From an uncultured Methanosarcinales archaeon (GTDB lineage Archaea > Halobacteriota > Methanosarcinia > Methanotrichales > Methanotrichaceae), in contig CAWJKV010000005.1 of NCBI GenBank assembly GCA_963843555.1, positions 256,001 to 320,000 of the forward strand: a DNA stretch of 64,000 nt, written 5' to 3'. The notes below the pieces were generated by a model. It ran no database searches. It was not told where the DNA came from and saw only the letters and a list, made by a program, of their open reading frames with translations. The position numbers were made by a program, and so were the translations under genes. Below, piece after piece: positions 3,133 through 21,998 of this stretch (the first letter of the stretch is position 1; each line of letters opens with the position of its first letter).

Positions 3133-5443
3133 ATGCATCTCATAATAGCAGAGAAGCACGATGCTGCTAAGAGGATTGCTCAGATCCTGGCGGGAAGCAA
3201 GCCCAGCACTCAGAGGATAGCAGGCGTCGAGGCTTTTCAGTTTGACGATAAGGTCGTCTTAGGCCTGAGCGGCCATATCGTGGGAGTCGACTACCCTTCG
3301 GAATACAACAACTGGCAAAAGGTGGACTGCAAGGATCTGATCCGAGCCGAGATTGTAGTTCGTCCCATAAATGAGAAGATCATCGATGCCCTGCGCTCTT
3401 TAGGTAAACAAGCAAGTCGCATCACTGTGGCCACGGATTATGATCGGGAGGGGGAGCTCATAGGTGTGGAAGCCCTGAAGATCATCCAGGAGGCAAATCC
3501 AGGCCTGCAGGCCGACCGCGTCAGGTACAGCGCTATTGTCAAGGACGAGATCCTCAAGGCCTTTAAGGACTCTGGAAAAGTGGACTTCGACCTGGCGGCC
3601 TCAGGAGAGGCCAGGCAGATAATAGATCTCGTCTGGGGTGCAGCGCTTACCAGGTACATCTCTCTCACCTCGGGAAGGCTGGGAAAGGAATTCCTTTCGG
3701 TCGGGAGGGTTCAATCGCCGACTCTTGCCCTTATCGTCGATAAAGAGCGAGAGATTCAGGCTTTTGTCTCAAAGGCTTACTGGGAGATCTATGCTGATTT
3801 GGAGAAAGAGCTCCGCGTGCAGCATGCCAAGGGCCGCATATGGGAGCAGACTGAAGTCGATAAAATAGTTGCCAACCTTGGCAAAGTAGGCGTCATCCGG
3901 TCCATCGAGACAAAACCACGCATCGAGAAGCCGCCTGCTCCTTTTGACACCACCAGCTTCATCTCTGCGGCCAGTGGAATCGGGTTTTCTGCCGCCAACG
4001 CCATGCGCATAGGAGAATGGCTCTACATCAACGGTTTCATATCCTATCCAAGAACGGACAATACCGTTTATCCTCCTTCCATCGACCTTGTGGCCTTAAC
4101 CAGGCTTTTCACCAAAGGCGCTTTTTCCCGAGAGGCGGAGCGGCTACTTAAAGGAAAGATGGTGCCCACTCGCGGCAAGAGATCGACCACAGACCATCCG
4201 CCTATCTATCCCACAGCACCGGCAGAGAAGAGCGAGCTTAAGGATGATCAATGGCGAATTTATGAACTGGTAGTGCGGCGCTTCTTTGCCACCCTGGCAG
4301 ACCAATGCGTTTGGGATGCCACCAGCCTCAAGGTGGATATTGGTCCGGAGCCCTTCCGGGCCAGCGGAGCGCGCCTCGTGGAGGCGGGCTGGAGATACTA
4401 TTATCCTTACAGCAAGGCCGAGGAACACATTCTCCCCGAGCTGAAAGAAGGCGAACGACTTAAGGTTCTGGGCCATAATGTCGAAGCTAAGGAGACCCAG
4501 CCACCGGCTCGTTATGGTCAGGGCAAGCTCATCAAGCTCATGGATGACCTTGGGTCTGGGCACAAAATCCACCCGCCACGACATCATCAGCAAACTTTAT
4601 GCTCGCGCTTATGTGCAGGGCAATCCCATGCGGCCTACCAACACCGCTTATGCCGTGGTGGACACGCTGCAAAAGTATGCGCCCACCATCACCAAGCCGG
4701 AGATGACTCAGACTCTGGAAAATGATATGACTCAGATCTCGGAGCGGAAGATCGGAGAAGACGAGGTCATCGAGGAGTCGAGAGTTATGCTCACTTCCGT
4801 CTTTGATGAGCTGACCCAGAACCAGGAGGGCATCGGTCAGTCTCTCAAGGACGGCCTTCGCATCGATAAGATCGTGGGAACATGCGAGAAGTGCAAATCC
4901 GAACTCATAATTCGGCGCGGCCATCGCGGCTCGCGTTTCATCGGCTGCTCCGGCTATCCGGAATGCAGATTCACTCTGCCCCTCCCCAGATTCGGATCGG
5001 TAGTGGTGACGGACAAGATGTGCGAAAAGCATGGCATGTTTCATATTCGCATCATCAACAAGGGCAAGAGACCCTGGGATCTGGGATGTCCGCACTGCAA
5101 CTTCCTGGAGTGGCAGGCCAAGAAGGCCATGGAGAAGGCCGATCCTGAGAGCAATGAGGTAAAGTTAGAGAAGAAGGGAGCGGCCCGGGGCGGAAAAACA
5201 AAGAAAGCCTCAACCAGGGGAGCAAGAGCCGGAAACACGGCAAAGAACGTAGTCAAGGCCAAAAGCGATAGCCTGGCGGATGTGCCGGGAATAGGCCCCA
5301 AGACCCTGGAGAAGCTGGCCTCTGCTGGCGTGACGACCTCTCAAGACCTGATCGGTGCCAAAGCCAAAATTCTGGCCACAAAGACCGGCCTATCCGAGAA
5401 GAAAATTCTGGCCTGGAAGAGCGTTGCCAAAGCCTCAAGCTGA
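3133..5443 (+). CDS. topA: DNA topoisomerase I (type IA) with C-terminal Zn ribbons and HhH tail; frameshift near 4555
   Basis: LIIAEK, ATDYDREGE, SVGRVQSPTL, GFISYPRTD (catalytic Tyr); GLGTKSTR continues in ORF 4478-5443; PGIGPKT HhH. Confidence 0.95.
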
Positions 5444-5550
5444 GCCGCCCGGATTCTATTTTTTAATCGTAAACTTTAGGCCCGAAATATCCAGCAGATA
5501 GCTCCATCGAACTCTGGCATTCGACCTGGAGAAAAGATCTGATGGCAAAA

Positions 5551-5624
5551 TGGGCCTGGCCGGATTTGAACCGGCGGCCACTCGGTTATGAGCCGAGCGC
5601 TCTACCGGACTAAGCTACAGGCCC
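5551..5624 (-). tRNA. tRNA with CAU anticodon, probably tRNA-Ile2
   Basis: GGGCCTGTAGCTTAGTCCGGTAGAGCG-CTCGG CT CAT AA CCGAG...GGTTCAAATCC...CAGGCCCA; GGGCC acceptor fits archaeal Ile2 better than Met. Confidence 0.88.
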
Positions 5625-5634
5625 AAAAGGAATG

Positions 5635-5726
5635 CGCCGCCAACAGGGCTCGAACCTGTGACATTCTGGTTACTGCTCTGTCCTGCAATTAACAGCCAGA
5701 CACTCTACCAACTGAGTTATGGCGGC
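5635..5726 (-). tRNA. tRNA-Asn(GUU) with 19-nt intron at 37/38 (5671-5689)
   Basis: GCCGCCATAACTCAGTTGGTAGAGTG-TCTGG CT GTT A[ATTGCAGGACAGAGCAGTA]A CCAGA...GGTTCGAGCCC...GGCGGCG. Confidence 0.93.
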
Positions 5727-5782
5727 TCGATACCCTGCCTGGATGCACAATGATTTAAGCCTTTTGATATGAAGTAGTTCCT

Positions 5783-6820
5783 ATGCGCGTCCTGAAGAAA
5801 AATCTGCGCGGCGATGAAGGGGAAATAGCTCTGCTCCCCGAGTCTTTAGACGATCTATGGCATCTGCAGCATCTGGTTGAGAGGGGCGATCTTGTATTTG
5901 CCCTGACTCACAGGAAGATGCCGGCCATCGCTGATAAGGCGCGGCCGGAGAAGATGGAGAGAAAGACGGTGCGCCTGGGGATTAAGGTAGAGGATATAGA
6001 ATTTCACATGTATTCCAACTGGCTCCGGCTGCACGGCATTATCAAATCGGGCATGGATGTGGGGGCATATCATACCCTGAATATCGAGGTTGGAACGGAT
6101 CTGTCCATTCTCAAGTACCACTGGAGGCCGGACCTGCTGGCGCGCATCGATGATGCGGTGGCAGAATCACAAAGGCCGAAAGTTGTTTTGGCTCTGGTGG
6201 AAGAAGGTGAGGCCACCATCGGCATTCTGCGCCAGTTCGGGGTGCAGATGGCAGCAGAGATACGAATGGGCAGCGGCAAAGGCAGCGGCGAGGACACCCG
6301 CGCCACCTTCATGAGTGATGTGGCCGAGGCCATCGACCAGACAGCCCAGGAGGGAGCGGAGGTGATCCTGGCCGGCCCGGGCTTTGCCAAAGAGGATCTG
6401 AAGAAGGTGATCGACTCCAGCTATCCGGAATTGTCCAAGAGGATAGCCATGGACGATGCTTCCTCCATTGGAAGATCCGGATTTCAGGAGGTGCTGCGTC
6501 GCGGAGCCGTAAAGAGCGTCCTCGAGTCCAGCCGCATAGCAAGGGAAGCGAAGCTCATCGAGGATCTCTTCCGGGAGATCGCCAAGGACGGCAAAGCCGC
6601 TTATGGCATCAAAGAGGTGCAAACCGCAATGAACTATGGCGCCATTGAGAGCCTCCTGGTCCTCGATGAACTGGCCCGCCGGGGAAAGGTGGATGAGATC
6701 ATGCGCGAAGTGGGCAACGCACGCGGAAAGGTGGTGATCTTCAGCTCAGAGTTTGAGCCTGGGGAAAGGCTGCTCTCCTTGGGCGGCGTGGCGGCATTGC
6801 TCCGATTCAAGATAGTTTGA
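5783..6820 (+). CDS. pelA: mRNA surveillance protein pelota
   Basis: PESLDDLWHL, RLHGII, YHTLNIEVG, AGPGFAKED, LGGVAALLRF. Confidence 0.95.
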   Translation: MRVLKKNLRGDEGEIALLPESLDDLWHLQHLVERGDLVFALTHRKMPAIADKARPEKMERKTVRLGIKVEDIEFHMYSNWLRLHGIIKSGMDVGAYHTLNIEVGTDLSILKYHWRPDLLARIDDAVAESQRPKVVLALVEEGEATIGILRQFGVQMAAEIRMGSGKGSGEDTRATFMSDVAEAIDQTAQEGAEVILAGPGFAKEDLKKVIDSSYPELSKRIAMDDASSIGRSGFQEVLRRGAVKSVLESSRIAREAKLIEDLFREIAKDGKAAYGIKEVQTAMNYGAIESLLVLDELARRGKVDEIMREVGNARGKVVIFSSEFEPGERLLSLGGVAALLRFKIV

Positions 6821-6847
6821 TTCAAGATAGTTCAACGGAGATTTGTT

Positions 6848-7642
6848 ATGACCAAATGCGACAAATGCCAGAGTTCTGCCATTATCTACCAGAAGTACTC
6901 GGGCATGCGTTTATGTCAAGCTCATTTCGACGAGGACGTGCACCGCAAGATCAGAGAGAGCCTGCGCCAGACAGGGCTTTTCGGTCGGGGCGCGCATGTG
7001 GCCCTGGCACTGGACGGCGGTAAGGATAGCGCCTCTATGGCTTTTGTTCTCAAAGGCATCTTCAGGAACCGAAGAGACATTGATTTTGTGGCTATCATCA
7101 TCGATGAGAAAGGGACTCCCGCGAAGCCTGCCAGACTTATTGCCGAGCAGCTGGATATCCCTTATGTCGAAAAGAGACTCCCAACTCCCCCTCTGCCCGG
7201 AGTTATCCCTCAGGATGCCTGCTCAGGGTTTGACACCACCACTCAGAGGATGGAGCATCTTATTGACATCGCGCAGGAGATGAAAGCCAGCGTTCTCGCT
7301 ACGGGCCATAATCTGGATGACGAGGCAACAGACGTATTTATAAGCTATCTATGGGGCGATGTGGATGGACTTCTGGATCATAGCCAGGGCATCAGGGAAG
7401 AGGGAAAAATTCCCTGGATTAAGCCCCTTCGTCGTATTCCGGAAAAGGAGGTAAGGCTCTTTGCCATCAAGCATGGTCTTGCCTATTCCGATGTTGCTCG
7501 CCGGGATCCCTTCCGGACAGAGGCAAAGAGGCATCTTTGCAATTTTGATTCCCGGCATCCTGGGACGAAGTATTCCCTTCTGCGAGGCCAGGAAAAAATG
7601 TCCCGGCATAGACGCGGGGGATCCACAGGGCAAAGCCTTTAA
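6848..7642 (+). CDS. TtuA/TtcA-like PP-loop protein (degenerate motifs)
   Basis: N-terminal CDKC...LCQAHF Zn finger, DGGKDS, ATGHNLDDEA, IKPLRRIPEKE. Confidence 0.8.
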   Translation: MTKCDKCQSSAIIYQKYSGMRLCQAHFDEDVHRKIRESLRQTGLFGRGAHVALALDGGKDSASMAFVLKGIFRNRRDIDFVAIIIDEKGTPAKPARLIAEQLDIPYVEKRLPTPPLPGVIPQDACSGFDTTTQRMEHLIDIAQEMKASVLATGHNLDDEATDVFISYLWGDVDGLLDHSQGIREEGKIPWIKPLRRIPEKEVRLFAIKHGLAYSDVARRDPFRTEAKRHLCNFDSRHPGTKYSLLRGQEKMSRHRRGGSTGQSL

Positions 7643-7670
7643 GTGTGGATGCAAAATAATCGAATCTTGC

Positions 7671-7745
7671 GCCTCGGTAGCTCAGCTGGTCCAGAGCGAT
7701 TGACTTGTAATCAATAGGTCGCGTGTTCGAATCACGCTCGGGGCT
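7671..7745 (+). tRNA. tRNA-Thr(UGU)
   Basis: GCCTCGGTAGCTCAGCTGG...ATTGA CT TGT AA TCAAT...GTTCGAATC...TCGGGGCT cloverleaf. Confidence 0.96.
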
Positions 7746-7770
7746 TTCTTTAGCTGTTTTATGATAAAGT

Positions 7771-7943
7771 TCGATGGCCACATCCACCCAAAAACGACTG
7801 AAATCCGGAACTCTATGTTCGTCTCTCTGCCCCATATTTAGGCAGGGAGGCAACACGTCCCGGGTCGAACAGAGGAGTTGACCATCGCAGTGATTGATAT
7901 CGATAATCGAGCCTGAATTGGGGACTCAGGCCTTTTTTATTTT
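7771..7943 (+). ncRNA. Candidate structured RNA ending in hairpin plus T-tract
   Basis: Nested stems 7772-7777/7882-7887, 7809-7821/7866-7879 and 7822-7831/7841-7850, then GCCTGA..TCAGGC and TTTTTTATTTT. Confidence 0.4.
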
Positions 7944-8033
7944 CTTCATATCCAGTCTGGTCTTGCACCTGGGGCAGGCCTTAGGTTTGTTCACCCTCGT
8001 CTCCCATCCGTAGTGGCATTTGGGACATTTCAT
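7926..8033 (-). CDS. 35-aa zinc-ribbon microprotein (CPxC...CPxC)
   Basis: Manual translation MKCPKCHYGWETRVNKPKACPRCKTRLDMKKIKKA*; below ORF-track cutoff. Confidence 0.8.
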   Translation of the reverse strand: MKCPKCHYGWETRVNKPKACPRCKTRLDMKKIKKA

Positions 8034-8155
8034 CTGTTTCATATTAATACAGTTGTAATAAGAGTATTAATAACTTTCGATTGTATATGATTATCCATAC
8101 TACTCCTGCAAGCGCAAAGCCTATAATTGAATAGAGGTGGTAAATACAGAACTTC

Positions 8156-8635
8156 ATGAACGAGATATTGGAGATCCTTTCTGAAAACGCCAAGGCGACA
8201 CCTTCTGAAGTCGCGGCGCTGCTGGGCAGATCTGAAGCGGATGTGGCCCAAGAGATACGGGAATTGGAGGAAGCGGGCATCATAAGAAAATACATCACCC
8301 TGATCAACTGGGAGAAGCTCGACCAGAGCCTTGTCTTCGCCGTCCTGGAGCTGAAGGTGGCCTTGCAGCGCAAGACCGGTTATGACGCTGTGGCGGAAAG
8401 GATCGCCAGGTTCTCTGAGGTGGAGTCGGTGAGGCTCATCTCCGGAGGACACGATCTCTCAGTCACTGTGCGGGGCAAGTCCATGAAGGATATAGCGTAC
8501 TTCGTGGCGGAGAGGATCGCCCCGCTGGAAGGCGTCCAATCGACGTGCACCCACTTCATCCTTAAGAGTTACAAGGAACACGGCGTCATCCTGACCGATA
8601 AACCTAAGCCCAAGAGGTTGGTGATAACTCCATGA
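8156..8635 (+). CDS. Lrp/AsnC family transcriptional regulator
   Basis: N-terminal HTH, IRELEEAGIIRKY, C-terminal RAM domain; overlaps aminotransferase start. Confidence 0.92.
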   Translation: MNEILEILSENAKATPSEVAALLGRSEADVAQEIRELEEAGIIRKYITLINWEKLDQSLVFAVLELKVALQRKTGYDAVAERIARFSEVESVRLISGGHDLSVTVRGKSMKDIAYFVAERIAPLEGVQSTCTHFILKSYKEHGVILTDKPKPKRLVITP

Positions 8636-9827
8636 AGCAGAGCCTCAAAAATGTTCCAGCCTGGAATGCTGATAGGCACCTAAATAAGGCGGTCAGAGAC
8701 ATGCCGCCTTCGGGGATACGCAAGTTCTTCGACTTGGTGAGCGAGATGGAAGGGGCGATCTCTCTGGGCGTGGGCGAGCCGGATTTTGTCACGCCCTGGC
8801 ATGTGCGCGAGGCCTGCATCTATTCACTGGAGTCTGGAAACACTCACTATACCTCTAACAAGGGGATGCCGGAGCTGAGGGAGGTCATCTGTGATCAGGC
8901 TTACACTGATCTGGGATCTGGATTACGATCCCGCCGAGGAGATTCTGATCACCACAGGCGTGAGCGAAGCCGTGGACCTGGCTTTTCGAGCCACGCTCAA
9001 CCCTGGCGACGAGGCTATTGTGCCCGAGCCCTGTTATGTGGCCTATACTCCGGATATCATCCTGGCGGGAGGGGTGCCCAAGACGGTTCCCACGCGCCTG
9101 GAAGACGAGTTCCGGGTGCAGCCTGAGGAGATTGCCAGGGCCGTGACTGAGAAGACCAAGAGCCTTCTGCTCAGCTATCCCAACAACCCCACCGGCGCGA
9201 TAATGACGCGCTCCGACCTGGAGGACCTGGCGGACGTCGTGGTGGAGAACGATCTGATTGTCATATCGGATGAGGTCTATGGCAAGCTCTGCTACTCCGG
9301 CAGCCACGCCAGCTTTGCTCAACTGGAGGGCATGAAGGAGAGGACGGTCATCTTAAACGGCCTTTCCAAGTCGCATGCCATGACCGGCTGGCGCGTCGGC
9401 TACGTGCTGGGCGATCCAGCAGCTGGTCGCGGCCATGACCAAGATACATCAGTACACCATGCTCTCTGCACCCACCATGGCCCAGGTGGCGGGGCTGGAG
9501 GCATTGCAGAAGGGCGAGGAGGAGATGCTGAACATGAAGCATGAGTACGATCTGCGGCGGCGCATGTTCGTCTCCGGCCTGAACCGCATCGGCCTGGACT
9601 GCTTCGAGCCCAGAGGGGCGTTCTATGCCTTCCCGTCCATAAAAGCCTGGGGTCTGTCATCAGAGGAGTTTGCGGAGCGCCTGCTGCATGAGCAGAAGGT
9701 AGCGGTTGTGCCGGGCGATGTCTTCGGACCGAGCGGCGAGGGTTTCCTGCGCTGCAGCTATGCCACCTCCCGTGAGGAGCTGATCGAGGCTCTGGACAGG
9801 ATGGAGACATTCATCAAGGGCCTGTGA
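8632..9827 (+). CDS. PLP-dependent aminotransferase class I/II; two frameshifts (~8905, ~9420)
   Basis: ISLGVGEPDF, SYPNNPTG, ISDEVY, SKSHAMTGWRVG, GAFYAFP, VVPGDVFG across three consecutive ORFs. Confidence 0.92.
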
Positions 9828-10447
9828 GACGATATAAGATGCTCAAAGCCAATCTCAGATCAGAGAAAACGGACCGTCTGGCGGGTGGGCTGGCGGCTCT
9901 GGGCCTCTCGCCCAACACCTGGACACTTCTCTCGCTGGTGCCGGCGCTGTTTGGTCTGGCGGCATTGGTTATGCACCAACTCGCCTACGGCCTGGTGCTC
10001 TTTGCCCTTTCCGCTTTTATCGATCTCGTGGACGGGACGGTAGCCCGCGTGACAAATCAGGCCACGAATAAAGGAGCCTTCATCGACGGGGTTGTGGACA
10101 GGTATGTCGAGATGATGCTGTATCTCGGGCTTTTGCTATATCTTGGCAGAGGAGAATTTCTGAGTATTCCCAATGAGGCCTGGTTTATGGTGCTCATATT
10201 CGGGGCAATGATGACCAGTTTTGTGAGGGCCTATGCCGATCACCGCGGCATTGTAAAGGACCCCGCGGAGCTGAAGAGGATGGGCGGACTCCTGGAGCGG
10301 ATGGAGCGGCTGATGCTTCTTTATGCTGGGATGTTTCTCGGGCTCTTCAATATAGAGTGGATGATGGCGGTGATAGCCATAACCGCGGTTCTGGCGAATG
10401 CGACGGCTCTGCAGAGGATAGCATTCGCAATGAGAAAAGGAAAATGA
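9824..10447 (+). CDS. CDP-alcohol phosphatidyltransferase (archaetidylinositol-phosphate synthase-like)
   Basis: DLVDGTVAR...GAFIDGVVDR signature, SPNTWT, GLLERMER. Confidence 0.9.
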   Translation: MRRYKMLKANLRSEKTDRLAGGLAALGLSPNTWTLLSLVPALFGLAALVMHQLAYGLVLFALSAFIDLVDGTVARVTNQATNKGAFIDGVVDRYVEMMLYLGLLLYLGRGEFLSIPNEAWFMVLIFGAMMTSFVRAYADHRGIVKDPAELKRMGGLLERMERLMLLYAGMFLGLFNIEWMMAVIAITAVLANATALQRIAFAMRKGK

Positions 10448-14885: not shown

Positions 14886-14947
14886 GCCCCATTCCACATT
14901 TTTTTATTTTGTACGTAGGGCGTTTGAACTTGTGAGCCAAGTGCTCC

Positions 14948-15908
14948 TCAAATATCCCTGAGGAGCGCCTTCACTGCCATTTCGATGGCCTCTGCCGATC
15001 CCAGCCGGGGCGTCCAGCCAAGCCTTTTGATCTTCTCTATGGAGAGCAGCATGACTTTCACGTCTCCCTTCCAGCCCCGGCCATCGACGCCGCCCGTATA
15101 ATCGTACTCGACATCCGTTGAGGCCCATCTGCTCCACAACTATGTCAGCGATCTCTGTCACATCCACGGAGTCGGTTGAACCTATGTTGAAGACATTGGT
15201 CTCGTCACCGGAGCCTTCCACAGTGTCTACCATGGCTTGAACACAATCCTTCACTTCCAGGTAGGACTTGCGCTGCTTGCCTGATCCCAGTATCTCCAGT
15301 CGCTCGGGATTTTCCCGCAATTTTCGGATGAAGTCCACCAGGACTCCGTGAGTGCCCCGCTCACCCACGATGTTGGCAAATCGATAGACCCAGGATTGCA
15401 TCTCGAAGGTGTGGCAATAGGAAGAGATCAGCGCCTCGCAGGAGAGCTTCGATGCGCCGTAAAGGGAGATGGGCAGCAGAGGGCCATAGTCCTCAGGTGT
15501 GGGCACCGTTGCCGCCTCGCCGTAAACTGTGGACGTAGAGGTGAATGCGATGCGTCGGACCCCATTCTTCCGCATGGCCTCCAGAAGATTATATGTGGCC
15601 TGCACATTTTGCTCCAGATGTACACTGGTGTTTTCTGCGCCCAGTTTCACATCGGGATTGGCGGCCAGATGAAAGACCAGATCCTTTCCTTCAATAGCTT
15701 TTTCCAGTATGCCGGCATCCTTCAGATCTCCTTCCAGCAGATGGAAATCCGGGTTGTCCTGGTGAGGGACCAGGAACTCTCTTTTTCCCGAGCTGAAGTT
15801 GTCCAGGACGGTTACTTCATTCTGCAAAAGCAACCTTTCCACGAGGTGGCTGCCTATGAAGCCTGCGCCACCTGTGACGAGGATGGATTGACCCTTGAGC
15901 ATCATCAT
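14948..15908 (-). CDS. NAD-dependent epimerase/dehydratase (UDP-glucose 4-epimerase-like); frameshift ~15120
   Basis: VTGGAGFIGSH, STSTVYG, YGASK, GRGWKGDV in second frame. Confidence 0.92.
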
Positions 15909-16234
15909 AAGTAAATTCTCTTCAGGGTAATCAAGGTTGTGGACTGGCGTGGAGCAGTTCCCACCACATATGACCATATATGCACACTGTCTATAGATTG
16001 GGTTTTGACCATTTCTGGGGAGAAGCCACTTTTGGGCAAATCGATTTTTTTCTCATAATAAAATATTTTTAAAAAGAAATGCAATTAGTAAGAGAGATAC
16101 TGACGATCTGGTATTTGAATATAATTATAATTATTGTCTTTGGATGTCATAATACTTAAATAGAATCCCACCTGCTATACTAAGGCTAGAGATTTAGAGC
16201 TTAAGGTTCAAAGGATTAATGGTGAGGTTGACTT

Positions 16235-17977
16235 ATGAAAGTTGCAATAGTAGGAGCAGAACTGGAAGAAAACCTGGGAATGCGCTACATGGCCTCTTCT
16301 CTGGAAAGCAAAGGGCACGTGGTAGAGATCGTTCCCTTCAACACGGAATGTGATATTCAAAATGTCGTGCAAAAGGTGAACTCGCTCTCTCCCCAGATTG
16401 TAGGTCTCTCCATGGTCTTCACGGGCAGGGGCAGAGAGTTCTGCAATCTGGCCGGGGCTTTGCGGGACGGAGGCTTCCGGGGTCACCTTACTGCGGGTGG
16501 GCCTTTCGCCTCTTTCAACTGTGAGGCTCTGTTGCGCGATTTTCCTGCCTTCGATTCCATCGCCCTTGGCGAAGGCGAGACGCTCTTCTGTACCCTGGCT
16601 GAGCATCTGGATGATCTCTCTCTGGTTCCCGGCCTATGCTACAGAAAATCGGATGGATCTGTGGTCACAAACCCGACCATTAGCGAACAGGACGATCTGG
16701 ATTCGCTGCCTTTTCCCAAGCGCACCACCTTCCACTCTTACTTTGGCAAACCCATCGCCAGCATTCTCACCAGCCGGGGCTGCTGGAGAAACTGCGCCTT
16801 TTGCAGCATCAATGCCTGGTATGACCGCGTGGGTGGAATGAAGTTCAGAGTAAGAAGCGTCGACAATATAGTGGCGGAGATGAAGGAGCTCTACGACAGA
16901 TACAATGTGCGCATATTCAACTTCCAGGATGATAACTTCTTCTTGCCCGAAAAGACGAAGGCCCTGCATAGATTCGAGGCCCTGCGGGACAGGCTCAAAC
17001 AGGAGGGCGTGGAGGATATCGCCATCGCCATCAAGGCCCGCCCGGACAGCATCACCCGTGAGTCTATAAGCGTGCTCGACGAACTGGGCCTCTTCCGGGT
17101 TTTCCTGGGAGTGGAGAATGCTTCCGAGAACGGTCTACGTAACCTCAACCGCAAGCAAACCGTTGATCAATCCCTGAATGCTCTGCAGATCTTGAACGAC
17201 TTCGATGTGCACCTGGCCTTCAATCTGCTCATGTTCGAGCCGGATACGGTCATGGACGACCTGCTGGTCAATCTGAGGTTCATGGAGCGGCATCTGGATA
17301 ATCCCTTCAACTTCTGCCGGGCCGAGGCCCATGCAGGCACCGGCCTGGAAGCAAAGCTGAACGCGGAGGGGCGGCTCCTGGGCGACTACTTCGGGCTGGA
17401 TTACCGGCTCAAAGACCCGCAGTGCGAGGCGTTTCACCAGGTCGTCAACTACGCCTTCTTTGACCGCAACTTCAGCGACTACGGCCTGCACTACTTCAAT
17501 ATGCAGGTGGACTTCACCTACCAGCTTCTGCGGCGATTCTATCCCGAGGTGCTGACCGAGTCCCTGAGGGGTGCCGTGAAGAGCTTCATCAAAGAGACAA
17601 ATCTGGACACCTACAAGTGCCTCTGCCAGACCTACGACTTTATCGAATCGACGGACCCCGGCAACCGTCTGGCGCTGCAGGGCTTTGCCGGTGAGATGAG
17701 GATGATTGTAGACGAGGGAAGCAGGGGTCTCCACACTCAGGGCGAACAAATCCTGGATGCTCTGAACAATGCCTATGACCGCCGTGGATTGGGCGAGTCG
17801 CGGGTTATGTCAGCGCCAATAGCAAGCGTTGTCTCGCCCTACTTCGGCATTGGAGGACCCGAACAAGGTGCCTATTCACCGGGCTCCATGGGCCTTGTCG
17901 ATCTCTTCGGACTGACACCGGTGCCCATACCCTATCAGACATTCAAGTCCCAACTATCCCGGCAAGAGGGAAGGTGA
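16235..17977 (+). CDS. Cobalamin-binding radical SAM protein (class B methyltransferase-like)
   Basis: N-terminal B12 domain (NLGMRYMASSL, IVGLS, AGGPFAS, GEGE), SRGCWRNCAFC (CxxxCxxC), FQDDNF, FLGVENAS; GGTGAGG SD. Confidence 0.93.
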   Translation: MKVAIVGAELEENLGMRYMASSLESKGHVVEIVPFNTECDIQNVVQKVNSLSPQIVGLSMVFTGRGREFCNLAGALRDGGFRGHLTAGGPFASFNCEALLRDFPAFDSIALGEGETLFCTLAEHLDDLSLVPGLCYRKSDGSVVTNPTISEQDDLDSLPFPKRTTFHSYFGKPIASILTSRGCWRNCAFCSINAWYDRVGGMKFRVRSVDNIVAEMKELYDRYNVRIFNFQDDNFFLPEKTKALHRFEALRDRLKQEGVEDIAIAIKARPDSITRESISVLDELGLFRVFLGVENASENGLRNLNRKQTVDQSLNALQILNDFDVHLAFNLLMFEPDTVMDDLLVNLRFMERHLDNPFNFCRAEAHAGTGLEAKLNAEGRLLGDYFGLDYRLKDPQCEAFHQVVNYAFFDRNFSDYGLHYFNMQVDFTYQLLRRFYPEVLTESLRGAVKSFIKETNLDTYKCLCQTYDFIESTDPGNRLALQGFAGEMRMIVDEGSRGLHTQGEQILDALNNAYDRRGLGESRVMSAPIASVVSPYFGIGGPEQGAYSPGSMGLVDLFGLTPVPIPYQTFKSQLSRQEGR

Positions 17978-18044
17978 AACCGGATCTGAGCGCCTGGCTT
18001 ATGGGGAAATCCTTGTTGAAAAAGTATCAAATTTATTTATTAAT

Positions 18045-19436
18045 ATGAGTACGGAGGTTAGTTTAATGGAGAATAAAACGTTAGAGAATATGCGCTATTG
18101 CGTAGAGCCGGTTCACCCTATGGCGGTCAGGCTCTACAGCGATCTGGTGGCGATATACAGGTTCGTCAAAGATACCTACCAGACAGAGATAGATGCCGCC
18201 TTTGATAGGGCATCGCAGCAGATCGGCTTCGTGGTCACCACCACTGTGCCGGTGATGCTGGAAGTGGGAGAAGGCGGGGCCATAAAGAGCCTGAGCATGG
18301 GCTCGGAAAGCCTGAAGAACACACCCTTCGAGAAGGAGATAACTGCCGTTTTTGATGCCAAGAGAAAGGGAGAGAACAAGCTTGGCGTCTCCCCCGGAGT
18401 TTACAATCTGGCCCTATTCTGGTACGACGCAGTTAAGCTCAGGCTGAGGACGGACTGGATGGAGCCCGCCCAGCCGGTTTATCAGTTGCAGTCAGAGCTT
18501 ATGGGAATGAGACGGTCGCCTCAAAGTGCCCAGGCCATGAGCATGGCAATCCAATCCCATCATTGGATGGAGCCGGTCCATCACAGACCCTGGTGCGAAC
18601 CCGTTCATACGCCATGGATGGAACCGGTCCATCATAGACCCTGGTGTGAACCCGTTCATACGCCATGGACAGAGCCAGTCCACCATATGCCCTGGATGGA
18701 ACCTGTGCACCCGCATACGCCCTGGATGGAGCCGGTCCATTATCCAGGCTGCAGGCCGTGGCTGGAGCCAGCACACCCTGTCTTCCAGACGGCAGCAGAT
18801 CTGAAAAAGGCCGGTGAGGCGAAGACGTTTGAGCATACGGAACCTGTTCAGTACTTGAATAGAGTGAATCAGATAATCCTGGAGAGATCGATCCTGGTGT
18901 CGGCCATCGATGAGGTTTATCCGGAGCTGAAGCTGGGCGAGAGACTGAATCAGGCCCAGTATGCCATGTCTCCCACTCTTCCACTGCCACCACCGCGTGC
19001 AGCAGCCTGGCCCGGCGTCCGAGAGCCGGCGCATATGATGGCATATCAGTGGGCCCGTGAGCCCTTGCCTAATCCCTGGAGACAGGCTATGGCCGAGATC
19101 GCTCAGGTGCTGGAAAGATATGGACCTACACCTGAGCCGTGGAAAGGTCAGCTACTGTCTGAGATTGCGAGTGTTCTGGCCAGGTTCAGCTATGCAATGC
19201 TCAACCCCCAGCCGCTACCTCCACGCATGGCGGCCTGGCCTGGCGTCCGAGAGCCGGCGCATATGATGACGCCTTTCCAGTGGGCTAGTGAGCCACAGCC
19301 CAATCCCTGGAGGCAGATGAATTTCCCAGGAGTAAGAGAACCGGCGCATCAGATGGCAGGTATGCAGCCGGAGATGCCTCAGCAGATGCTATCCGAGATG
19401 GCTGCAGTGATGCGCAGATACGGCTTCCAGATTTGA
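18045..19436 (+). CDS. Repeat-rich protein with 14 EP[VA][HQ] motifs; candidate precursor/substrate of the adjacent radical SAM
   Basis: 463-aa ORF 67 nt after rSAM on the same strand; tandem W-x-E-P-V-H repeats with synonymous divergence; start may be Met8 behind GGAGG. Confidence 0.85.
   Translation: MSTEVSLMENKTLENMRYCVEPVHPMAVRLYSDLVAIYRFVKDTYQTEIDAAFDRASQQIGFVVTTTVPVMLEVGEGGAIKSLSMGSESLKNTPFEKEITAVFDAKRKGENKLGVSPGVYNLALFWYDAVKLRLRTDWMEPAQPVYQLQSELMGMRRSPQSAQAMSMAIQSHHWMEPVHHRPWCEPVHTPWMEPVHHRPWCEPVHTPWTEPVHHMPWMEPVHPHTPWMEPVHYPGCRPWLEPAHPVFQTAADLKKAGEAKTFEHTEPVQYLNRVNQIILERSILVSAIDEVYPELKLGERLNQAQYAMSPTLPLPPPRAAAWPGVREPAHMMAYQWAREPLPNPWRQAMAEIAQVLERYGPTPEPWKGQLLSEIASVLARFSYAMLNPQPLPPRMAAWPGVREPAHMMTPFQWASEPQPNPWRQMNFPGVREPAHQMAGMQPEMPQQMLSEMAAVMRRYGFQI
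18564..18776 (+). repeat. Coding tandem array of eight W-x-E-P-[V/A]-H units
   Basis: WMEPVHHRP WCEPVHTP WMEPVHHRP WCEPVHTP WTEPVHHMP WMEPVHPHTP WMEPVHYPGCRP WLEPAH. Confidence 0.95.
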
Positions 19437-19448
19437 AGGATGCCTGCG

Positions 19449-19496
19449 TTTGTATGCCCGACCATTGGGCATACAAATACCAATTTTTTCATTTTT
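19449..19496 (+). terminator. Hairpin plus T-tracts closing the rSAM/repeat-protein unit
   Basis: TTTGTATGCCC-gaccatt-GGGCATACAAA (11-bp stem) then TTTTTTCATTTTT. Confidence 0.7.
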
Positions 19497-19593
19497 GAGC
19501 ATTAACGCCAGGATGATTCCTGTTCGTCATTTGATTAGCTCGCTAACATAACTTATTTATCGTAAGCCTTTGTGTTTAACCTGCGTGATATGT

Positions 19594-20514
19594 ATGGCAG
19601 GAAAAATGCTCAAGCTATCCTTGCTGCTCCTGGTGCTGTCTGTCTTTTGCAGCGGCGCACATGCGGCGGAAGGCGAACGATTGAAGCTGGCAACTACCAC
19701 CAGCCTGCAAGATACCGGACTCCTTGACAAGATCAAAGAGAAGTTCGATGAGAAGTACAACGTATCCCTGGATGTCGTCTCCGGCGGGACCGGCATTGCT
19801 CTCCAGTACGGAGAGCGCGGTGATGTTGACGTCCTCATAGTCCACGACAAGCCGAGGGAGCTGAAGTTTATAGAGGACGGGCAGGGACTGGAGAGAAGAT
19901 GCATTGCCTATAACTACTTCTATGTGGTCGGCCCGAAGGATGATCCAGCGGGCATCAAGGGCATGAATGCTTCACAAGCACTTGCTGCAATCATGACCAG
20001 GGGAGAAGCCGATCCCGCATCGGTGATGTTCGTCTCTCGAGGCGACAACTCGGGAACACATGCCCGCGAGAAGCTGCTCTGGAAGAATGCCGGTCTCAAC
20101 TACAGCCTGGTCAACAGTTCCGGACCCTGGTATGTCGATGCCGGCCAGGGCATGGGCGCCACACTGAACATTGCCAATGAGAAGCAGGCCTACACTCTGA
20201 GCGATATGTCCACCTTCATGGCCTACCAGGGCAATCTGACTCTGGTACCCTTGATTGGAGGCGGAGATGATCTCCTGAATGTTTACGTGGCCATGGCTGT
20301 GAACCCGGAGAAACATCCTGATGTGAACTGCGCTCTGGCTAATGAGTTCATCAACTACCTGGTATCTGATGAAGGCCAGGATCTGATAGCCAGCTATGGT
20401 ATGGAGAAATACGGCAAGCCTCTCTTCTCTCCGGCCAGGGGCAATTGCACCCTCATCGGCTGCTCAGATGGAGAGTGCGCAAAACCCGCGACCGCCACCT
20501 GTGCTGCAGCATAA
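19594..20514 (+). CDS. tupA: Tungstate ABC transporter substrate-binding protein
   Basis: LATTTSLQDTGLL, GTGIAL, SRGDNSGTH, GQGMGATL; signal peptide. Confidence 0.93.
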   Translation: MAGKMLKLSLLLLVLSVFCSGAHAAEGERLKLATTTSLQDTGLLDKIKEKFDEKYNVSLDVVSGGTGIALQYGERGDVDVLIVHDKPRELKFIEDGQGLERRCIAYNYFYVVGPKDDPAGIKGMNASQALAAIMTRGEADPASVMFVSRGDNSGTHAREKLLWKNAGLNYSLVNSSGPWYVDAGQGMGATLNIANEKQAYTLSDMSTFMAYQGNLTLVPLIGGGDDLLNVYVAMAVNPEKHPDVNCALANEFINYLVSDEGQDLIASYGMEKYGKPLFSPARGNCTLIGCSDGECAKPATATCAAA

Positions 20515-20542
20515 ACTGAAAGATCGCTAGTGGTGAATTTGG

Positions 20543-21238
20543 TTGGAAGAGATCTGGAACGGCATTATCAGAACTATAGAGCTGATAATGACCCTCGACT
20601 CTCAGGTGGTGGAGATCACCACCAGGTCTCTTTTCATCTCTTTATCGTCCGCCTTTTTGGCCGCCGTCGTATGCATCCCCCTGGGGGGCTTCATCGAGTT
20701 TCGCAGCTTTTGGGGAAAAGGGGCATTAATAAACGCTATTCACACCCTTTACAGCCTACCAACGGTTACTGTAGGCCTCCTGGTCTTCCTGCTCATCTCG
20801 CGCTCCGGTCCGCTGGGCGGTCTGGGCCTGCTCTTCAGCCCGGCGGGGATGATCCTGGGCCAGGCTATTCTTGTCGGCCCAATTATGGTTGGGCTCACCA
20901 TTACAGCTCTGGCGGAGGTCAACCCGCTGATCAAGGAGACTGCTAAATCATTGGGCGCAACAGAGCTGCAGATAATAGTCACCGTAATAAAAGAGGCCCG
21001 CGTCGCGGTCATGGCTGCCGTTCTCCTCGGATTTGGCAGGGCGCTCTCGGAGGTTGGTGTGGCCATGATGATCGGTGGAAACATTCGGGGCTACACGCGC
21101 GTGCTCACCACGTCCATTGCCCTTGAGACCTCCATGGGCAACCTGGAGCTATCCATTGCCCTGGGAATTATCCTCATATCCATCTCGCTGGTGATCAATA
21201 TCGTGCTGAATAGATTTCGAAGGCGACGGATTGACTGA
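20543..21238 (+). CDS. tupB: Tungstate ABC transporter permease
   Basis: SRSGPLG, FGRALSEVG, GGNIRGYTRVLTT. Confidence 0.93.
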   Translation: MEEIWNGIIRTIELIMTLDSQVVEITTRSLFISLSSAFLAAVVCIPLGGFIEFRSFWGKGALINAIHTLYSLPTVTVGLLVFLLISRSGPLGGLGLLFSPAGMILGQAILVGPIMVGLTITALAEVNPLIKETAKSLGATELQIIVTVIKEARVAVMAAVLLGFGRALSEVGVAMMIGGNIRGYTRVLTTSIALETSMGNLELSIALGIILISISLVINIVLNRFRRRRID

Positions 21239-21241
21239 GGA

Positions 21242-21998
21242 ATGGAGGATGGACGGGCTGATGGAATGACCGGTGAACTGCCATTTCTGGAGATTAAGAG
21301 CTCTCGGCAAAAGCTATGGCAAGGTGGAGATCCTCAAGGACATCGACATAACTATGGAGCGTGGCGAAGTCCTGGTCCTCATCGGTCCCACTGGATCAGG
21401 GAAGACAACTCTGCTGCGGCTGGTGAGCCTGCTGGAGGCGCCAAGCTTAGGGTGCATCCGGTTCAAAGGCCAGATTGTCACAGCCGGTCCAGAGAAAGAG
21501 AGACTTCTGGCCCGCCGCAGCATGGCCATGGTCTTTCAAAAGCCGGTCATGTTCAAGTCCAGCGTTCAGGAGAATGTCTCCTTCGGTTTGAGGATGAGGG
21601 GAAGGAATGATCGCGGAAAAGTGCGGGAGGCTCTGGCTGCCGTTGGCCTGTCCGGATACGAGAAGCGGGACGCCAACACGCTCTCGGGAGGGGAGATGCA
21701 GAGGATCGCCCTGGCCAGGGCAATGGTCCTGGAGCCGGAGCTGCTGCTTCTGGACGAGCCGACAGCCAACCTGGATCCGAAGAGCGCTGCGGCGGTCATC
21801 AGCCTCCTGCAGGAATTGACCGGAAGGAAGACGACTGTGATCATGGCCACGCACAATATGCGGGAGGCCCTGTTGCTGGCGAGCAAGGTGGCAGTGCTGC
21901 AGGCGGGCAGGCTGACGGCCGTGGGAAGGCCGGACGAGATATTCAGGTCCCGAAAGGTCACAGACCCTCTTTCGTCCGAAATCTCAGCACCCTGGTGA
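21242..21998 (+). CDS. tupC: Tungstate ABC transporter ATPase; frameshift near 5' end
   Basis: GPTGSGKT, LSGGEMQR, LLLDEPTANLD. Confidence 0.88.

Follow-up and report, generated by a model that had tools for sequence, protein, structure and literature searches.

A B12-binding radical SAM enzyme and an adjacent EP[AV]H-repeat protein form a widespread two-gene cassette, a candidate protein-modification system

We analyzed a 64,000-nucleotide (nt) stretch of DNA from an uncultured Methanosarcinales archaeon of the family Methanotrichaceae (assembly GCA_963843555.1, contig CAWJKV010000005.1, positions 256,001 to 320,000 of the forward strand; hereafter, the window, in which position 1 is the first letter), and describe two adjacent genes in it. 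Gene 1 is predicted to encode a class B radical S-adenosylmethionine (SAM) enzyme, i.e., one with a B12-binding domain, and gene 2 encodes a protein with multiple copies of the motif EP[AV]H. The pairing of the two genes is strongly supported and near-obligate in both search directions. The cassette is a real feature, and from its composition we infer a function of the kind in which a radical SAM enzyme has an adjacent repeat-motif substrate; on balance, we favor reading the two genes as a dedicated enzyme-substrate pair in which the enzyme modifies each EP[AV]H motif. What is particular to the window is a tandem expansion of WxEPVH units, a near-highest motif count and an archaeal host that encodes McrA. 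The two genes fill positions 16235-19436 as same-strand open reading frames (ORFs):

16235..17977, plus strand: gene 1, class B (B12-binding) radical SAM enzyme, 580 amino acids (aa), from the ORF and Pfam
17978..18044, plus strand: intergenic spacer, 67 nt, G+C fraction 0.358
18045..19436, plus strand: gene 2, EP[AV]H-repeat protein, 463 aa, of no described family

The pairing was examined from both genes. In the search anchored on gene 2, one genome per prokaryote species was scanned, and the resulting 41 loci were searched with gene 1 using tblastn. At 37 of the 41 loci, the same strand carries an ortholog of the radical SAM enzyme (58-71% identical, full length) upstream of the repeat gene; it lies within ~350 nt at 36 of these 37, and 1.4 kb away at the remaining one (L046). 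The carriers include Acidobacteriota, Geobacterales and other Thermodesulfobacteriota, Brocadia, Anaerolinea, Nitrospinae, a Pedobacter metagenome-assembled genome (MAG), Methanoperedens and a Nitrososphaerales MAG, with Geobacter hydrogenophilus DSM 13691 and Geomobilimonas luticola JCM 17780 as cultured representatives, and same-strand adjacency spans at least eight phylum-level groups. In the search anchored on the enzyme, the best 80 of 318 metagenome relatives (62-91% identical) were considered, and the repeat protein is encoded 26-382 nt downstream, on the same strand, at 75 of these 80 loci (the gap in the window is 67 nt). The other five loci end too soon, and no locus with at least 300 nt of room lacks the repeat protein. 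A preliminary description of this DNA had staked its proposal on radical SAM homologs neighboring an EPxH-repeat gene; such a gene is present at all 75 testable metagenome loci, in addition to the loci reached through gene 2.

The exceptions among the 41 loci are of different kinds. At L020, the contig end cuts the locus. At L053, from the Nitrososphaerales MAG, the ortholog (66% identical) is on another short contig of the same genome (L055). It was observed that the repeat gene stands at the contig end of L053, and that an ORF following the ortholog in L055 (3346-3498, plus strand) reads by eye as transposase-like; the separation may come from an insertion or an assembly break. At L018 (1802-2530), the repeat gene is split into two ORFs, and at L054 (8004-8570), it lacks the first ~55 residues; neither genome has an ortholog of the radical SAM enzyme at E <= 1e-30. 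These degenerate copies, both in bacterial MAGs, could reflect the decay of one gene once the other had been lost.

Closer to the window, 60 related genomes were sampled, 36 from the same genus and 24 from two other families of the class. Both genes are present in just one of the 60 (G022, in which the enzyme is 81% identical, the partner 70% identical, and the two are adjacent), i.e., in 1 of 36 genomes of the genus and in none of the 24 from the other families. Nineteen other related genomes have radical SAM homologs of at most 33% identity only and no EPAH partner, and a 32% identical paralog in the window's own genome has no EPAH neighbor. The pairing is restricted to the radical SAM clade of gene 1. 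The preliminary description had proposed an archaeal system, and this has to be revised: most carriers are bacteria, and the cassette is rare in the genus of its host (1 of 36 other genomes).

When 540 crude ORFs from the 41 loci were clustered, just two recurrent clusters emerged, namely the pair itself. No third conserved gene was found at these loci; the next commonest neighbor, a LuxR-type regulator, occurs at 5 of them and was rejected as a third partner, as were tetratricopeptide-repeat (TPR) proteins along with a membrane protein present at 3 loci and a large Cys-rich protein present at 2. The preliminary description had remarked that the unit contains no protease, transporter or recognition element (RRE) of RiPPs (peptides made by the ribosome and then modified post-translationally), and the same holds at large, none of these being conserved beside the pair at the 41 loci. 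In a quick, unrooted tree of the radical SAM proteins, the window and G022 sequences stand beside an unclassified "bacterium" MAG (support of 99 in the Shimodaira-Hasegawa-like approximate likelihood ratio test), apart from the Methanoperedens pair (98) and from the Nitrososphaerales sequence; a clade of their own (100) is formed by the Geobacterales-type sequences. Within the limits of such a tree, this topology fits horizontal spread, and the pair as a whole fits a self-contained, horizontally mobile two-gene cassette.

The assignment of gene 1 rests on the following features, in agreement with the cobalamin-binding domain and CxxxCxxC motif of the preliminary description:

16265..16597, plus strand: B12-binding domain, residues 11-121 (Pfam PF02310, E 1.4e-13, 51.2 bits vs. 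a cut-off of 32.1)
16766..17245, plus strand: radical SAM core, residues 178-337 (Pfam PF04055, E 2e-18, 67.6 bits)
16781-16804, plus strand: CxxxCxxC cluster motif, CWRNCAFC, residues 183-190

An N-terminal B12-binding domain together with a radical SAM core carrying CxxxCxxC defines class B, and gene 1 has both. Across 27 aligned orthologs, with a mean column identity of 67%, the cluster cysteines C183, C187 and C190 are invariant; C70 and C361 do not vary either, nor do long stretches of the C-terminal 240 aa. Over 1000 homologs of gene 1 were found; the top 120 are all at least 63% identical to it and have generic or automatic names ("B12-binding domain-containing radical SAM protein", "BchE", "YgiQ"), of which "BchE" is an automatic label taken over from the source. 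Gene 1 does not reach the NCBIfam cut-offs of the hopanoid C-3 methylase HpnR (TIGR04367; 97.9 vs. 650 bits), the RiPP maturation radical SAM C-methyltransferase (TIGR03975; 91.4 vs. 281.85 bits), the BchE cyclase (TIGR02026; 89.3 vs. 481.35 bits) or MgmA, the glutamine C-methyltransferase of methyl-coenzyme M reductase (MCR) (TIGR04014; 65.8 vs. 360 bits). Because every equivalog cut-off tested was missed, gene 1 falls outside all the named families, and it is a predicted class B radical SAM enzyme of an unnamed clade. At E <= 0.01, Pfam gives the B12-binding and Radical_SAM domains alone, with no SPASM domain. No PqqD match was found with Pfam in gene 1 or gene 2, a sequence-level result that leaves room for a divergent RRE in the last 240 aa of the enzyme. 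Among solved structures, the best relative by sequence is OxsB (PDB 5ul2; E 9e-12, residues 29-352), followed by 9ccb_A (E 1.3e-10, residues 80-350). The accessible text of PMC11796369 identifies 9CCB as MgmA of Methanothermobacter marburgensis and describes it as a B12 radical SAM enzyme that methylates a protein. An anti-phage defense role was considered for the cassette and rejected: with PADLOC, gene 2 has no match, and gene 1 has only a generic 32-bit match, to PDC-M51A.

Gene 2 contains exactly 14 EP[VA][HQ] motifs, in the number and order given in the preliminary description; 2000 shuffled versions of the protein have 0.068 on average and never more than 2. Its features, from the N- to the C-terminus, are:

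18099..18464, plus strand: predicted folded N-terminal domain, ~residues 19-140, bracketed by CVEPVH (residues 19-24) and WMEPAQ (residues 138-143), with a predicted local distance difference test score (pLDDT) of 84-97
18564..18776, plus strand: eight WxEP[VA]H units in tandem, residues 174-244, a lineage-specific expansion, predicted to be disordered
18834..18968, plus strand: HTEPVQ (residues 264-269) followed by conserved helices (ILVSAIDEVYPELKLGERL; residues 264-308), pLDDT 93
19011..19034, plus strand: PGVREPAH motif 1, residues 323-330; the family consensus is also PGVREPAH
19239..19262, plus strand: PGVREPAH motif 2, residues 399-406
19326..19349, plus strand: PGVREPAH motif 3, residues 428-435

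The motif copies use different synonymous codons (GAG/GAA, CCG/CCC/CCA/CCT, GTT/GTC/GTG and CAT/CAC), which implies that the motif is kept at the protein level. The WxEPVH array is also a tandem repeat in the DNA (18564-18703, period of 51 nt, 2.7 copies, 86% matches) and is absent from the ~260-aa bacterial homologs; the eight units are a recent, lineage-specific expansion. Together with extra helix-plus-PGVREPAH units, the array makes up the additions of the window clade. All 100 aligned relatives have EP[AV][HQ] motifs, with 4-15 per protein, and just one member of this set, with 15, exceeds the 14 of the window. Over 719 motif instances, E and P are present in 100%, position 3 is A in 81% and V in 18%, and position 4 is H in 94% and Q in 5%, while the flanks are variable, with W (40%), V (31%) or I (12%) at position -2. 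Since E and P are invariant while position -2 varies, the conserved unit is EP[AV]H, rather than the W-x-E-P-V-H on which the preliminary description had centered; the latter belongs to the lineage-specific array.

The proteins of this family are 230-550 aa long, with bacterial members of ~260 aa, and follow a common plan: W[VM]EPAHP at the N-terminus, a globular domain of ~115 aa, DW[MVI]EPAH, a linker that varies, xEPAHWF, a helix that is conserved (ISAIDEVYPELKLA[DE]R), at least two PG[VI]REPAH motifs and a C-terminal helix ending in YG. D289, L295 and L297 of gene 2 are invariant among the 100 aligned sequences. A search of 5.8 billion proteins yielded 313 relatives of gene 2 at E <= 1e-3, every one of them named "hypothetical protein", and an exhaustive profile search of 1.84 billion proteins yielded 183 cluster representatives (50% identity) at E <= 1e-3 and 151 at E <= 1e-10, the weaker matches being mostly short fragments; the family is compact. 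Gene 2 has no match at E <= 0.01 among Pfam and NCBIfam families, metal- and B12-binding families included. Thus no model in these collections describes the pair, as the preliminary description had supposed, and the pair was not found described in the literature searched, which omitted most subscription journals and supplementary files; EP[AV]H was not found there as a substrate motif either.

Two unusual members of the family were observed. Among 74 members scanned, P0105 (303 aa, on a 1.6-kb contig) is the only one with a match to a leader family: its C-terminus is swapped for a segment matching Frankia_peptide (E 4e-4) and NHase_alpha (E 0.034), two families that are RiPP-leader-like, and its last residues form a short tail containing Cys. 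P0105 may be a true fusion, which would tie the family to RiPP biology, or an artefact of the assembly. In P0311 (525 aa), for which no Pfam match was found, a multi-pass membrane protein of ~386 aa is joined to the C-terminal half of the repeat protein, from WYPALKLRLKTDFMEPAH onward; this is probably a one-off rearrangement.

The structure of gene 2 was modeled with AlphaFold2 from a 100-sequence alignment (mean pLDDT of 64.8, predicted template modeling score of 0.54). In this model, helices 268-308 have a pLDDT of ~93, and the motif-rich stretches 175-249, 316-340 and 390-441 are below 50. A 264-aa homolog, P0108, modeled from 74 sequences, has a pLDDT of 72.5, with 82-97 in the N-terminal domain and below 50 in the motif segments 130-165 and 204-237. 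The models thus place the motifs on low-confidence linkers, predicted to be flexible, and the N-terminal domain is confidently predicted to fold. When the P0108 model was compared with 48,161 chains, just four reached Z >= 5, all of them the C-terminal domain III of TolA (1tol_A, Z 6.2, with a root-mean-square deviation of 2.8 over 84 aligned residues; 4g7x_B, 6.2; 6s3w, 5.7; 6fw4, 5.5); 84-90 residues were aligned in these chains, at a sequence identity of 3-10%. TonB C-terminal domains came next (Z 4.6-4.7), and the top Foldseek matches were the TonB-type C-terminal domains of HasB, FusB and TonB (E 0.14-0.24, probability 0.54-0.69). The TonB_C clusters of the Protein Atlas scored 0.87-0.88. 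All of these TolA and TonB scores are below the levels regarded as reliable (structural Z of 8, Foldseek E <= 0.001, Protein Atlas 0.9), and all the Atlas scores were under 0.9. The same weak likeness was obtained from the 463-aa model of gene 2, in which helical hairpins at residues 333-399 (Z up to 6.2) were disregarded as generic. Against the PDB, Foldseek gave no match at E <= 0.001 for either model; Pfam TonB_C has no match in gene 2 or the scanned members; and a sequence search of the PDB with the family profile gave one chance-level match (a KefC fusion, E 0.6). We treat the weak resemblance of the modeled N-terminal domain to TolA-III and TonB C-terminal domains as a lead that recurs across these comparisons and is sub-threshold in each. 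Gene 2 differs from the proteins that carry such domains in that it has no membrane anchor and that the resembling domain is N-terminal.

The enzyme (27-row alignment) was also co-folded with residues 1-335 of gene 2 (100-row alignment), as the preliminary description had proposed. The interface score, ipSAE, was 0.32 (runs of 0.35, 0.32 and 0.29), compared to 0.00 in all three controls; the runs had at least 7% of contacts in common, and the pLDDT of the partner was at least 45. The mark for a pass is reached by 116 of 157 solved complexes and by 2 of 215 mismatched pairs; values of 0.60 or under account for only 18 of the 157 solved complexes and for both of the passing mismatches. The co-fold gives weak support to binding between the enzyme and gene 2 and nudges the odds in this direction; no interface was returned.

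The preference for an enzyme-substrate pair rests on a combination of observations: the adjacency survives transfer across phyla, with no third partner; a radical enzyme adjoins an invariant motif of variable copy number on predicted flexible linkers; and the genes co-occur in the genus of the window, whereas degenerate partners sit in genomes without an ortholog of the enzyme. We infer that the enzyme acts on the repeat protein at the motifs, as follows. The cobalamin-type radical SAM enzyme would recognize the EP[AV]H-repeat protein and dock on it via the folded N-terminal domain and the conserved helices of the partner, and the motifs, on their flexible linkers, could thread successively into the active site. 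At each motif, one invariant residue (Glu, Pro or His) would be altered, C-methylation being the default chemistry for the enzyme class; the alternation of A and V at position 3 argues against that position as the target. The product would stay an intact, multiply modified cytoplasmic protein, which is the most likely outcome because no protease or exporter travels with the pair. The preliminary description had left open whether peptides are released or the protein remains whole; an intact modified protein (230-550 aa, with a confidently folded domain) fits better than a classical multi-core precursor. A more specific version of the proposal, which we put forward tentatively, is that Glu, Pro or His of a conserved E-P-A-H site receives a new kind of modification from the cassette, 4-15 times on a dedicated carrier protein, either by C-methylation or by a non-methylating radical reaction such as a cross-link, and that the modification makes the function of the resulting intracellular protein, e.g., a protein-derived cofactor array that binds a metal or corrinoid or is redox-active.

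Several points weigh against this proposal or against the chemistry attached to it. The loci are not independent, as some are kin and many metagenome contigs are near-duplicates, and the pairing count from the enzyme side takes in the best 80 of its 318 relatives. Class B membership does not fix the chemistry. In NCBIfam, BchE-type cyclases score on gene 1 as well as methylases do, and the best solved match is OxsB, which acts on a nucleoside and is not known to methylate; while PoyC, the bottromycin methyltransferases, TsrM and Mmp10 are methylases, OxsB and BchE illustrate that class B enzymes also perform other radical chemistry. Gene 2 is unlike the known class B peptide substrates, having a folded domain of ~115 aa, no recognized leader and no recognized RRE. 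The class of weak passes to which the co-fold belongs is more often wrong than right when a strong prior is lacking, and it came with no interface. Finally, the His/Glu-rich repeats could equally be metal or corrinoid ligands instead.

The last of these points leads to a different relationship, in which the repeat protein is an obligate accessory and not a substrate, i.e., a cobalamin or metal carrier or chaperone acting via the His and Glu of EPAH, or a scaffold that presents another substrate via its TolA/TonB-like domain. The invariant His and Glu are classical metal and corrinoid ligands, and the window copy is rich in His and Trp; the N-terminal domain is weakly similar to TolA-III and TonB (Z 5.5-6.2), whose C-terminal domains bind partner peptides by strand addition; and tight gene pairing suits any obligate partnership. 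Still, 4-15 copies with an invariant core are typical of modification sites and hard to reconcile with a stoichiometric cofactor carrier, the neighborhood keeps no further gene that could encode a substrate, and no metal- or B12-binding family matches gene 2, so that we consider an accessory role unlikely. It is also quite improbable, in our estimate, that gene 2 is a true multi-core RiPP or cofactor precursor, from which unlinked housekeeping proteases release small modified peptides or a redox- or metal-binding cofactor, much as PQQ is made from PqqA. None of the 41 loci has a protease, transporter or recognizable RRE as a conserved neighbor, conserved folded parts lie outside the motifs (including the C-terminal helix ending in YG), and gene 2 has neither a signal peptide nor an export gene; on the other side stand the repeated short motifs beside a radical SAM gene, which parallel TvgA/TvgB in the accessible text of PMC9062424, and the C-terminus of P0105, which resembles nitrile hydratase leaders and Frankia_peptide (E 4e-4) and has a Cys-containing tail, although P0105 is a single sequence on a 1.6-kb contig. 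That the two genes are mere neighbors with unrelated functions is hardly credible, given same-strand adjacency at 37/41 and 75/75 testable loci in at least eight phylum-level groups, the joint presence or absence of both genes in the genus of the window, and the degenerate repeat genes in two genomes without an ortholog of the enzyme.

Comparison with known systems is instructive with respect to the proposed enzyme-substrate pair. MgmA/QCMT (TIGR04014) is likewise a class B radical SAM enzyme and modifies a residue in a full-length protein, and the settings are alike in that the host of the cassette in the window is an McrA-encoding archaeon. However, most carriers of the cassette are bacteria without MCR, and the presumed substrate is a dedicated adjacent repeat protein, rather than an enzyme. 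The class B RiPP C-methyltransferases of the TIGR03975 type, which we take to be PoyC, the bottromycin methyltransferases and the clavusporin enzymes, share with gene 1 the combination of B12-binding and radical SAM domains and the repeated modification, presumed here, of the product of an adjacent gene. In contrast to their substrates, the partner in the cassette is 230-550 aa long, has a folded domain and, in 73 of 74 members, no leader family; also in contrast to those systems, the pair has no conserved protease, transporter or recognizable RRE at its side. Two attributes of classical RiPP clusters, a short precursor with a leader family and a co-located protease or exporter, were not found. 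According to the accessible text of PMC9062424, in the TvgA/TvgB system the radical SAM enzyme modifies every TVGG repeat in the product of the neighboring gene (a poly-cyclopropylglycine system). TvgB is of the rSAM-SPASM type, and its cluster has five genes, among them an oxidase and peptidase/transporters. The cassette differs in consisting of two genes only, with a B12-type enzyme and no SPASM match in gene 1. With OxsB, gene 1 has B12-binding and the radical SAM fold in common, and the shared core alone aligns.

Class B radical SAM enzymes carry out C-H chemistry that ranks among the hardest in biology, and most of their subfamilies have no known substrate. For the clade of gene 1, genome context indicates a likely substrate and a four-residue site. 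The small size of the two-gene unit and the availability of cultured carriers make the pair experimentally tractable, and it might bring a new protein modification to light. Spread widely across phyla, the family has no entry in Pfam or NCBIfam, which is a clear annotation gap. If the more specific version of the proposal is true, a class B radical SAM enzyme would for the first time have a full-length protein substrate of its own that is not an enzyme, and horizontal transfer would have carried the pair among anaerobes and soil bacteria and on into archaea of the methanogen type.

As regards the host, mcrA (MCR_alpha, 229.9 bits) was found on the same contig at G000:C5:254345-254725 (minus strand), ~1.3 kb before the window start and ~18 kb upstream of the cassette, so that the host is a methanogen or methanotroph-type archaeon. 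The MgmA (TIGR04014) cut-off is reached by no ORF of this genome. A link of the cassette to MCR modification was considered and rejected, given that most carriers are bacteria and that the MgmA cut-off is not reached.

The regulatory elements that flank the two genes are as follows:

15978..16234, plus strand: presumed promoter region, an AT-rich intergenic stretch with TATA-like runs and a GGTGA ribosome-binding-like site right before the ATG (from sequence and G+C content)
19448..19495, plus strand: hairpin with a 14-pair stem (19448-19478), then T runs, the presumed terminator of the two-gene unit

The G+C fraction is 0.319 in the upstream intergenic region, compared to 0.555 and 0.563 inside genes 1 and 2, and the hairpin, as RNA, has a folding energy of -22.5 kcal/mol (z -3.67 relative to shuffles). 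These measurements, along with the ORF positions on the plus strand and the spacer length, bear out the preliminary description of a self-contained two-gene unit with an AT-rich upstream stretch, a 67-nt spacer and a strong terminal hairpin.

Directly 3' of the terminator, an ABC transporter set occupies 19570-21998 of the window (plus strand). Its first gene encodes a PBP_like_2 substrate-binding protein (Pfam E 5.9e-39), and the ORFs after it appear, by eye, to be a permease and an ATPase; the set is not kept beside the cassette at other loci (41 loci clustered). A second, different candidate peptide-modification cluster was observed in the same genome (L056, G000:C18:26000-40000), with the following genes:

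4846-6261, plus strand: major facilitator superfamily (MFS) transporter
6373-7971, plus strand: B12-binding radical SAM protein, 532 aa, 32% identical to gene 1
7983-9239, minus strand: second B12-binding radical SAM protein, 418 aa
9341-9814, minus strand: 157-aa ORF with a PqqD/RRE domain (E 2.5e-6)
9831-10223, minus strand: 130-aa ORF with no family

Upstream of the cassette lies a gene for an NAD-dependent epimerase/dehydratase (window 14904-15977, minus strand), in which the match to Pfam Epimerase stops at residue 266 of 357. The 3' end of this gene is overlapped by a 63-aa ORF in a different frame (14948-15139, minus strand; GWKGDVKVMLLSIEKIKRLGWTP...), which resembles, by eye, what we take to be the normal C-terminus of such enzymes; this suggests a frameshift or sequencing error near 15140.

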